20,000 bases of DNA from positions 178,104 to 198,103 of the forward strand of contig NOWV01000140.1 in assembly GCA_003344405.1 (NCBI GenBank), written 5' to 3'. The translations under genes were made by a program, and so were the position numbers. The notes below the pieces were generated by a model that saw nothing but the letters and a program-made list of their open reading frames with translations, made no database searches and was not told the DNA's origin. The stretch comes from Trichoplax sp. H2 (taxonomy: Eukaryota). Position 1 is the first letter of the stretch. Each line of letters begins with the position of its first letter. Shown one piece after another: positions 11,160-14,100 of this stretch.

Positions 11160-14100
11160 ACGAATGTTAAATCTACGACTAGTAAATTTTATTACTGTAC
11201 CTTTGAACTTATACAATACAAGAATAGAAGTGTATGCCAACTCTATTAGATAAATTTGTATCAGTTAGGTATGTTCGACGTCGAATATGATGATATTTCT
11301 AGATCACTTAATATGGTTTACTTTTCTCTTTGTACTAGCACGTTATTATCTCGGTATGCATGCATATTAAGCATGCTGTAGAATAACATCTTGGTTCGGT
11401 AAAATTTGCTAGAGGCCTTGTCAGGATATTATTCATGTATCATCTGATATGACGTACTTTTTTCTTGTCAGAAAATTACTATACTGTACCAAGATGTAGA
11501 GAGGTAGACTAAACGTGCTCCAATAATGTATAGTTGTATAAAAATTAATTTTTAAAATATATATTATACCAAGTCACGAGTATCAAACCTAGAGTCCCTC
11601 AAATTCTCACTTACCGTTCTGAGGGCTAAAGATTCCGATGTGGTTGCTGATTACATAATATATATAAATTTCCTAATCAGCACTTGAATAATTCAGTACA
11701 ATTGTGTAACTGTAAACAAATAGTTCTATCAATACATGTCAAACGCTGTACCCATATTTTTTTTTATTTACGGAGACTGTTAAGTAACGTCGAAGCGCAA
11801 CAATTGTTAGATTTTATTATTAAGTATGCAATAATAAAACGAAGAGTCATTGAGATCAATTTTCGGTTGATACATATTTCGTTTATAATACTATAAAGAT
11901 TGATGAAAAACTGTTAACTAGTACTAGATTATATCAGTGAGTTTCATATATATCGAAATATGACTTTGAATAATAATAATAACGATGCCAATCCCATATA
12001 CAACGTCCTAAAATCGAGTTCCAATCTACCTCTACATCTTTACGCTAATTACTTTCAGCTGACAACCGAAGCTACATCTACAACTGTCGACTAGATAGTA
12101 ATAGCAGTAAGCCGTTTGCTGTGCATTGAATGTACCTATTGACTGTAGATAATCTTTTCTGATATTTTACAATGTACCATTCCAAATTTAATAGTCATCT
12201 CCTCGACTAAGAACTTCTTTAACGGTCGGTCTTAGAAGAAGAGTATGCTCAAATTGAGCGGTATAGCAACCTTTTATATCGCAAAGAGGAGGACAAGGAT
12301 CGATGATGCCGCTATCACATAGACTTTTTAAGGCCAGGAGATACTTTGTCTATAATGTAAGTAATATGAAATAGGACATCATTCATTTCTTTAGGTATAA
12401 GTAATGATGTATCAATCAACGTATTCATTAGCAAACCTGTCCTAAACGATCTAGCCAGCGTCTGCAGAATGCTAGTGTACCAAAGTTTTGATTTATTACG
12501 TTCAATAGTTGTTTAGCGCGTGCTGTTCGAAGTGGGACGTGACCCATCTCAAAATTTTTCATATAATGAGAAGTTTCCATGTCATCATGGACATATCCTT
12601 TACCCTATAAATTATAGTCAATATCTCAGAATAGAATTGAAAACTTCCGCTATATTTAAAAGCGCAGCATTTATGCTGTATCGTACCGTACTGCCAAACG
12701 TCTCAATAGCATAAAATTCGTTTTCTTCCATTTTAACAGCTTCGCCACCCTTGACAATTGGAACCGTTTTACTGGAATGGATACAATATTGAGATATGGA
12801 ATGTCCGTTGAGGTTGCGAATAGGCTTAACTATTATTGAGAAAAGCTTTCATTATTTACTGGTTAAAATGTCTAGGCTAGTTGGCCGATCTATCGTGTCA
12901 TATTATAATACCGCAAGGGTATAAATTATAATAGGTACTCTAGTAGCAGTGCAATCCATCTTTCTTTTAACATTACTATTAGGATTTTGAATTTTTAGTA
13001 CATCATTTCGTCAACATTGTCATTGCCGTAATGTTATTGTGACCAAGCATGGTCTTGGCAGACAATTTTATCACACAAAACTACTTCAAATAGCTAGCTA
13101 TTAACGAACCAGGATAAACTTTTCCATCCAATTCAACCTCGTACGATTCCATCACTTCTTGAATTCGTTCACCAATATCGCAAAGACGCACGTCAATACC
13201 GGCTTCTCGAATACCTGTATTGGTAGCGTCTTTAACAGCGGCAAGCAATTGATCGTATTTCGGATTGAAGGCAACGGTAAAGGCAGAGTCAATTATCCGA
13301 CCTGTTGATCGATAATGTAAAAATAAATTCGATCGTACTATCTATTTAAAGGCAAAATTGGTAAGATTCTACTTATTAAGATGCTAAATTAAAACAAATC
13401 AGCAAGCAAACGCACGCATCCCATACTTGCATCACAATCAACTGAAAGAACGTAGGCTATTCTATGTGCACTTACGGTACTAATAGCAAATTGGCATCAT
13501 TATATTAACTATCACACCAGTCTATTTTGGATATTTTTCGATTAATCCAAACTCCTTATTGTGACTACTTTAACGCATAAGTTAAGGAAACGACGTCGTC
13601 CGTAAGTTCAATGAAATAGTTCCTGCTCAATCTTAAAATATATAGTTCATATATATACTTGTACACACTCCATTTGTAAGATATAGGGTTCAAGAAATCT
13701 TACCGTTCACGTGTGTTCCAAAGTCGATCTTGCAAACATCGTCGTATTGTAAGACCGTTTTATCGCCAGCATTCGGTGTGTAATGGGCTGCACAATGATT
13801 TAGAGAGCATCCAGTGGGGAAAGCTAAGCCGGCCTCCAAGCCTTTTTCGTTGATTAATTTACGGGAAGTTTCTTCTAATCTTTCACATATTTCTATCATA
13901 GTCATGCCAGGCTTAATGTAGCTTTGTACATATTTTCTAGTCTAAGAATGTAGTATTTTATGTTACGATGGCCGAAATGGGATTGTCAAGTAAAAGAATT
14001 TGTCTTTATACACTGTAGTATAACACTATCCTAGCCTATTCTCTAGCTGATACAAGTTTAAATAGATTGACTAACTATGCTACGGTACCTGACGATGAGC

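Follow-up and report, generated by a model that had tools for sequence, protein, structure and literature searches.

The window analysed here is a 20-kb stretch of the Trichoplax sp. H2 genome (contig NOWV01000140.1, assembly GCA_003344405.1), which is AT-rich (GC 0.29-0.46) and carries two neighbouring genes for methionine aminopeptidase 2 (MetAP2), referred to below as copy A and copy B. Copy A is probably the faster-evolving member of this tandem pair and an intact, constrained and most likely active type II enzyme. MetAP2, the target of the drugs fumagillin, TNP-470 and beloranib, has hardly changed among animals, and copy A is a natural animal paralog with a resistance substitution defined in the laboratory. 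Public records already list both genes as MetAP2, and a protein search with exon 3 returned two entries named 'Methionine aminopeptidase 2 [Trichoplax sp. H2]', with 100 and 95 % identity, from the same 198-kb contig. The duplication units, genes and exons are as follows.

11156..15018, no strand assigned: duplication unit containing copy A (blastn of the two halves, repeat spacing)
15590..19337, no strand assigned: duplication unit containing copy B (blastn, repeat spacing)
12188..14949, minus strand: copy A MetAP2 gene, 8 exons, 7 GT-AG introns, 477 aa, P0001 (RDD39288.1)
16522..19269, minus strand: copy B MetAP2 gene, 8 exons, 7 GT-AG introns, 483 aa, P0002 (RDD39286.1)
14949-14802, 14649-14596, 14417-14089, 13941-13704, 13301-13110, 12829-12687, 12604-12437 and 12349-12188, minus strand: copy A exons 1 to 8
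19269-19119, 18966-18898, 18726-18398, 18241-18004, 17636-17445, 17164-17022, 16939-16772 and 16683-16522, minus strand: copy B exons 1 to 8

For each copy, a single exon model has GT..AG at all seven introns and its translation matches the public protein letter for letter. The duplicated unit, identified by repeat finding and blastn, is approximately 4.3 kb long and consists of four collinear pieces that are 77-95 % identical, and the direct-repeat families across it are spaced 4284-4432 nt apart. Upstream of the ATG the copies remain similar for only approximately 70 nt (to 15018/19337), and the duplication therefore left out most of the promoter. An earlier examination of the letters alone (the sequence-only reading) had drawn attention to the interval 12188-13301, which covers exons 5-8 of copy A but leaves exon 4 (13704-13941) outside.

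By domain, profile, ligand and insert criteria, both copies are classified as type II methionine aminopeptidases (MetAP2, peptidase M24A). They score 99.8 (copy A) and 101.2 bits (copy B) against Pfam PF00557, the M24 'pita-bread' domain (cut-off 23), and 328.8 and 335.5 bits, respectively, against the type II equivalog TIGR00501 (cut-off 222.65). The score with the type I MetAP model, 57 bits, is below the cut-off of 171. Alignment of copy A to human MetAP2 (1b6a_A) gave a full-length match with E = 3.5e-208, and the catalytic domain aligns without gaps and with a constant offset of +1 (query 214-477 against chain residues 215-478), the type II-specific helical insert included. The absence of gaps and the constant offset mean that the human residue numbering is correct, as had been assumed in the sequence-only reading. 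The metal ligands D251, D262, H331, E364 and E459 and the catalytic residues H231 and H339 are identical in all four Trichoplax proteins, namely the two copies and their counterparts in Trichoplax adhaerens H1. Ala362 is also kept in copy A. The exon model, the four-way alignment and the comparison with 1b6a_A thus agree with the earlier statement that the metal centre, splice sites and reading frame of copy A are intact.

Comparison of the copies over exons 4-8 shows 17 nucleotide differences, of which 11 are synonymous and 6 nonsynonymous. The six altered residues are the ones named in the sequence-only reading, at the places given there: five are derived in copy A and one, WLD to WID, in copy B. 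The codons, with human numbering, are listed below.

13285..13287, minus strand: C263, TCT (Ser262) in copy A and TGT (Cys) in copy B
12783-12785, minus strand: R337, TGT (Cys336) in copy A and CGT (Arg) in copy B
12774-12776, minus strand: A340, TCC (Ser339) in copy A and GCC (Ala) in copy B
12771-12773, minus strand: G341, AGT (Ser340) in copy A and GGT (Gly) in copy B
12293..12295, minus strand: Y444 (S1 pocket), TGT (Cys443) in copy A and TAT (Tyr) in copy B
12452..12454, minus strand: L420, CTA (Leu419, canonical) in copy A and ATA (Ile) in copy B, where the codon is at 16787-16789
12771..12785, minus strand: loop YCIHSSK of copy A (Cys336, Ile337, His338 corresponding to H339, Ser339 and Ser340), YRIHAGK in copy B

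Of the five changes in copy A, three lie in a stretch of five residues, an unusual degree of clustering (simulated p = 0.004). Copy B carries the canonical animal pocket residues. The available part of PMC10724148 lists the S1 subsite of human MetAP2 as F219, P220, G222, H382, M384, A414 and Y444, and S1' as A230, L328, E364, F366, L447 and Q457; among these tabulated residues, copy A differs at Tyr444 only. The description of copy A in the sequence-only reading as having a remodelled pocket therefore holds for Tyr444 but is overstated otherwise, as the other tabulated S1 and S1' residues, I338 and H339 are unchanged, and R337 and A340 vary within the family.

The pair is also present in T. 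adhaerens H1, where both copies are again neighbouring genes and the copy A frame is likewise intact. Clustering at 90 % pairs copy A with T. adhaerens P0121 (TRIADDRAFT_61708) and copy B with P0122 (TRIADDRAFT_61709). In the four-way protein alignment, the H1 copy A motifs are IIDSAF, YCIHASK and DPCPPL. Thus, S262, C336, S340 and C443 (4 of the 5 changes) are common to the H1 and H2 copy A proteins and S339 (A340S) is found in H2 only; WID is found in both copy B proteins. As four of the five changes are present in H1, the duplication and most of the changes predate the H1/H2 split, and these changes are not assembly or sequencing errors. Five codons, TQTTD, are missing from exon 2 of H2 copy A (14596-14649) and are kept in H1 copy A and in both copy B genes (18898-18966 in the window), and this is an in-frame deletion that postdates the split. 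Overall, H1 and H2 differ by 8 substitutions and the 5-codon deletion in copy A and by 2 substitutions in copy B. Among the catalytic-domain matches, no orthologs from other placozoans were recognisable, and the best non-Trichoplax matches were 88 % identical. An anomalous top-ranked match (82 % identity, 73 % coverage) was set aside.

Conservation at the changed sites was scored in two sets of homologues. The close set comprises the 118 nearest homologues of the catalytic domain, and those with names all come from animals; most of the animal homologues listed share 82-88 % identity with the Trichoplax catalytic domain. The counts in this set are C 117 and S 1 at C263; R 108, Q 8, C 1 and N 1 at R337; A 106, G 10 and S 2 at A340; G 118 at G341; Y 117 and H 1 at Y444; and L 118 at L420. 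Conservation reaches 95 % or more in 187 of the 300 catalytic columns. Apart from copy A, Cys337 occurs in a single close homologue, P0275, named as a MetAP2-like protein of Littorina saxatilis, which also has Gly340.

The broad set is uneven: it includes plants and fungi, and many of its members are closely related to each other. Site counts were restricted to proteins of 330-700 aa (141 of 272), as the exon 4 search gave mostly short fragments, and 137 proteins were counted. Here, site 263 is C in 97 and S in 37, 337 is R in 63, Q in 41 and S in 13 with others in the remainder, 340 is A in 73, S in 28 and G in 19, 341 is G in 103, E in 12, T in 7 and S in 2, and 444 is Y in 88, C in 17, L in 6 and H in 3. 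A further 120 short fragments, found in a search with residues 321-477, have Y (105), C (9), H (5) or I (1) at 444. Cys444 is therefore a recurrent natural state (17/137 and 9/120 sequences). Ser263, which the sequence-only reading had said occurs in some fungal enzymes, was present in all eight fungal sequences. That reading would have been undermined if these residues vary freely among orthologs; they do so outside animals but not within them.

Twelve sequences from Arabidopsis, Camelina and Capsella, one of them named Arabidopsis MAP2A (AtMAP2A), have S263, E341 and C444 together, and 11 other plant sequences, Brassica among them, have the canonical C, G and Y at these positions. The copy A-specific departures at 263, 341 and 444 all (3/3) fall among the columns at which AtMAP2A departs, which number 10 of the 187 conserved columns, or 20 of 215 with the threshold relaxed. 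A post hoc hypergeometric test of this overlap gives p = 1e-4 or 7e-4, respectively. Among 97 other complete sequences, none departs at all three of these sites and five depart at two.

In exons 4-8 the numbers of synonymous (Sd) and nonsynonymous (Nd) differences between the copies are 11 and 6, giving dS 0.058 and dN 0.0086, and the outgroups place five of the nonsynonymous changes on the copy A branch and one on the copy B branch. The neutral expectation for the copy A branch was calculated for 702.7 nonsynonymous sites with three neutral rates, and the Poisson probability of five or fewer changes was obtained for each. With half the divergence of introns 4-7 as the rate, 34.4 changes are expected (P(<=5) 5e-10), with half of dS, 20.4 (5e-5), and with half the divergence of the least diverged introns (3, 5 and 7), 11.7 (0.025). 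As 5 changes were observed against 11.7-34.4 expected, copy A is constrained. Omega on the copy A branch is approximately 0.15-0.4 and not >1. The constraint is less strong than on copy B. An early pseudogene, one of the alternatives that had been offered for copy A, is disfavoured by the one open 477-codon model with its 7 GT-AG introns, by the intact gene in T. adhaerens and by the non-neutral substitutions.

Divergence between the copies is mosaic. Introns 1, 2 and 4 differ by 12-18 %, introns 3, 5 and 7 by approximately 3 % and intron 6 by 8.5 %, and the 3' flank differs by 12 % and the exons by 0.6-8 %. The introns are significantly heterogeneous (chi-square p = 6e-9; intron 4 versus intron 5, Fisher p = 5.5e-7), and two blocks of low divergence can be delimited.

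12146..13245, no strand assigned: low-divergence block 1, 0-7 mismatches per 100 nt, introns 5-7 included, a likely gene-conversion tract
13746..14245, no strand assigned: low-divergence block 2, 0-3 mismatches per 100 nt, intron 3 included

Of the five changes specific to copy A, four lie in block 1 and one, the Ser262 codon (13285-13287), just beyond it, in an interval (13246-13345) with 10 mismatches per 100 nt. In exon 1 (14802-14949 and 19119-19269), at alignment columns 31-32, the H2 copies both have VG and the H1 copies both have AA, as would arise if the paralogs had undergone gene conversion separately in each lineage or had shared an ancestral polymorphism. The mosaic divergence and the VG/AA pattern together point to gene conversion between the copies. 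A 58-nt stretch is 100 % identical between them (12115-12172 and 16448-16505), and just downstream of it the copy B 3' flank has approximately 47-51 extra bases (12110-12115 versus 16396-16448).

Expression was assessed in sequencing runs that were examined as contigs, and contigs drop minor variants. In run X19, the one library examined that is certain to be RNA, a 548-nt contig (depth 169) joins 12349 to 12437 and 12603 to 12686, and a 59-nt contig joins 12829 to 13110; the joints coincide exactly with introns 7, 6 and 5 as predicted. The longer, 548-nt contig has copy B letters at all eight diagnostic positions (12191, 12294, 12454, 12756, 12759, 12773, 12776 and 12785), and the 7 other letters in its exon 6 piece equal in number the 7 differences between copies A and B in exon 6. 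As this spliced contig has copy B letters, copy B, or the equivalent gene in that strain, is expressed and spliced as modelled. In exon 8 of the same contig, the letters at 12242 and 12308 match neither copy in the window, so the X19 strain differs from that of the window. Run X19 leaves 13184-14788 uncovered, which proves nothing about copy A. X19 contigs also cover a copy A-specific interval outside the coding exons.

11900..12144, no strand assigned: copy A-specific 3' flank, covered by two X19 contigs with depths of 27.9 and 36.5 and with 1 and 2 other letters, respectively

Over this interval copies A and B differ by approximately 5-11 % plus 54 gap columns, and for comparison the depth of a copy B-type intron 5 contig in X19 is 13.3. 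The covered flank is a weak hint of copy A transcription. The search with residues 321-477 found no Trichoplax fragment with copy A letters (best match 85 %) and is uninformative on expression either way. Runs X14 and X17, which hold introns and have no joints, were left out of the expression evidence. Contigs from DNA runs mix A and B letters (X4 record 25, for example, has B-like exons 5 and 6 and an A-like intron 5) and were used neither for linkage or the H1/H2 comparison nor for the absence of variants.

Several other features of the window were noted. A single open reading frame (ORF) of 392 codons at 9609-10787 (plus strand) matches the rhodopsin-family model of seven-transmembrane, G protein-coupled receptors (GPCRs; PF00001, 157 bits, E = 8e-46), contains DRY- and NPxxY-like motifs and is convergent with the 3' end of copy A. 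The region 3625-4860 is repeat-rich, with four tandem copies at 63-nt spacing (4291-4605, 77-78 % alike) and repeat families of 56-136 nt spaced 377-560 nt apart; these may be exons of a repeat-domain gene. In the spacer between the copy A start and the copy B 3' end there are two 65-nt direct repeats (15302-15451, 85 % alike, spacing 85). Upstream of copy B, 19001-20000 has the highest GC in the window (0.46), with overlapping ORFs at 19600-19999. No inhibitor biosynthetic genes were found in the 20-kb window, the contents of which are the rhodopsin-type GPCR ORF, repeat-rich sequence and the sister copy.

Under the reading that we prefer, copy A belongs to a young, lineage-specific duplicate pair that predates the divergence of Trichoplax sp. 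H2 from T. adhaerens H1, and gene conversion has later homogenised parts of it. The derived changes of copy A adjoin the active-site cleft between His339 and Tyr444: Y444C takes away the aromatic wall of the S1 pocket, A340S and G341S lie one and two residues past His339, and C263S is next after the metal ligand Asp262. We infer that copy A is active, with a widened pocket and perhaps an altered substrate or inhibitor preference. In this reading, the combination of S263, a residue other than Gly at 341 and C444 is an alternative state of the family, one that also evolved separately in the Arabidopsis-group MAP2A; loss of MAP2A has a phenotype.

Several observations weigh against this reading. 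The asymmetry between the copies is weak, at 5:1 in the catalytic exons (binomial p = 0.22) and 8:2 between the species (p = 0.11), and reaches p = 0.02 only when pooled (13:3). Gene conversion from copy B could mimic constraint on copy A. The changes hit sites that are 99-100 % conserved in the 118 close, mostly animal homologues, as those of a decaying copy would. RNA run X19 yielded no contig that carries coding letters of copy A; as minor variants drop from contigs, this does not prove absence, but expression of copy A is unproven. Finally, the parallel with AtMAP2A involves two lineages only and was tested only after it had been noticed.

A serious rival, albeit one that we consider rather unlikely, is decay of a redundant copy. 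Here, copy A would be under relaxed constraint and drifting to loss, its neutral or slightly deleterious changes tolerated because copy B works. Copy A has changed faster in both periods (5:1 in the catalytic exons, then 8 substitutions and the 5-codon deletion versus 2 between H2 and H1), most of the promoter was not duplicated, and the spliced RNA seen in X19 is of the copy B type only. Moreover, animal-invariant sites were hit in roughly the proportion expected at random (3/5 versus 187/300 conserved columns). On the other hand, both species keep the frame and every splice site of copy A, the nonsynonymous changes are fewer than expected under neutrality (P 0.025 to 5e-10), and the copy A-specific 3' flank is present in the RNA library at a depth of 28-36, versus 13 for the intron contig. 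Furthermore, the changes match the state of a working plant enzyme and, according to the available part of PMC10648944, Y444C is compatible with activity. If copy A is inactive or silent, it would be an ordinary young duplicate on its way out. If copy A, impaired in catalysis, were retained because its Lys/acid-rich N-terminal extension has a non-catalytic role, the presence of both poly-Lys blocks in copy A would fit. However, the N-terminal region is the part of copy A that changes fastest (14 of the 20 A/B differences), the catalytic domain is the constrained part and no catalytic residue has been lost, making this explanation very improbable. Two alleles laid out as tandem copies by the assembler would account for the close similarity of the exons (0.6-8 % divergence). 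This is scarcely credible given that the genes are neighbours in two independent public assemblies, that introns 1, 2 and 4 diverge by 12-18 %, and that there are many indels and a distinct spacer.

The sequence-only reading had favoured a shift in specificity or resistance to natural inhibitors. Adaptive inhibitor resistance of copy A is possible but unproven, and target duplication, in which copy A was selected as a less inhibitor-sensitive or specificity-shifted MetAP2 beside the canonical copy B, seems to us quite unlikely. The evidence for it begins with Y444C, a substitution shown elsewhere to lower sensitivity to the fumagillin/ovalicin class. As described in the available part of PMC10648944, a screen in yeast deprived of both MetAPs, run with ovalicin present, selected human MetAP2 mutants capable of rescue and yielded Y444C and A362T. 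Y444C is there described as ovalicin-resistant yet functional, and the equivalent change in Entamoeba EhMetAP2, Y379C, raised the fumagillin IC50 (half-maximal inhibitory concentration) 3.6-fold. Tyr444 belongs to the S1 subsite and, with His339, flanks the inhibitor cleft in the sources as far as they were available. Three of the five changes are in the His339 loop (p = 0.004), where A340S was added in H2 after the split, and in both species the differences have survived within a tract that is otherwise homogenised between the copies. A precedent is the second, cluster-encoded MetAP2 proposed as self-protection in Aspergillus fumigatus, in the available part of PMC7020470. Against it, the same part of PMC10648944 reports that in yeast Y444C gave no fumagillin resistance and A362T resisted both drugs; copy A lacks an A362T-type change and retains both A362 and His231, the covalent target. 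Among other MetAP2 sequences, 17/137 and 9/120 have Cys444 naturally. Arabidopsis, whose MAP2A has Cys444, is described in the available parts of PMC3969242 and PMC11773813 as losing all cytosolic MAP activity when a map1A mutation is combined with fumagillin, and according to modelling cited there the residues that recognise fumagillin are retained in both plant MAP2s. No signal of positive selection is seen (omega of approximately 0.15-0.4 on the copy A branch), the window holds no biosynthetic genes, the neighbours being the GPCR and copy B, and expression of copy A is unproven.

Regarding copy A as a constrained and probably active enzyme, we see it as a natural experiment on the tolerance of the S1 pocket, on the coupling of sites 263, 341 and 444, and on target duplication as protection from microbial MetAP inhibitors. 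In its boldest form, which we regard as doubtful, a natural MetAP2 tolerant of ovalicin/fumagillin-class compounds, through Y444C and a reshaped His339 loop, would stand beside a canonical copy as a chemical defence in a grazer of microbial films. S263/X341/C444 would then be a recurrent, structurally coupled 'alternative pocket' state evolved independently in copy A and in the Arabidopsis-group MAP2A. Full-text literature searches (Trichoplax with methionine aminopeptidase, the locus tags and the accessions) found no account of this paralog pair and, within reach of such searches, the difference between the paralogs, the Y444C match and the MAP2A parallel appear unremarked.

Compared with human MetAP2 (1b6a, 1boa), both Trichoplax copies are alike in the ligands, His231, His339, Ala362, the type II insert and the Lys-rich N-terminal extension. 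Copy A has S, C, S, S and C at 263, 337, 340, 341 and 444, and copy B is the same as the human enzyme at all five sites and differs at L420 (I). The closest engineered counterpart is human Y444C (Brdlik and Crews 2004, as cited in the available part of PMC10648944), with the identical substitution at the identical position in a mutant that is reported to be functional in yeast. However, Y444C is a single engineered change, whereas copy A arose naturally as a paralog and differs at four more sites.

The closest natural counterpart is the Arabidopsis-group MAP2A (AT2G44180; P0051 and 11 close relatives), which like copy A is a duplicated MetAP2 paralog with S263, a residue other than Gly at 341 and C444. 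It differs from copy A in having Glu at 341 and Gln at 337, in stemming from a separate duplication and in 7-17 further departures that are not shared. In the available part of PMC10642216, map2a adds to the growth defect of map2b, and because the defects are additive the S/E/C enzyme evidently works in the plant. The A. fumigatus MetAP2-1 (Afu8g00410) of the fumagillin cluster resembles copy A in being a second MetAP2 gene beside a housekeeping one; as far as the available part of PMC7020470 goes, it lies in the biosynthetic cluster of the producer, whereas Trichoplax copy A lies beside its sister copy with no cluster in the window. The Aspergillus MetAP2 sequences in our set, among which the cluster copy was not told apart, keep Tyr444, unlike copy A.

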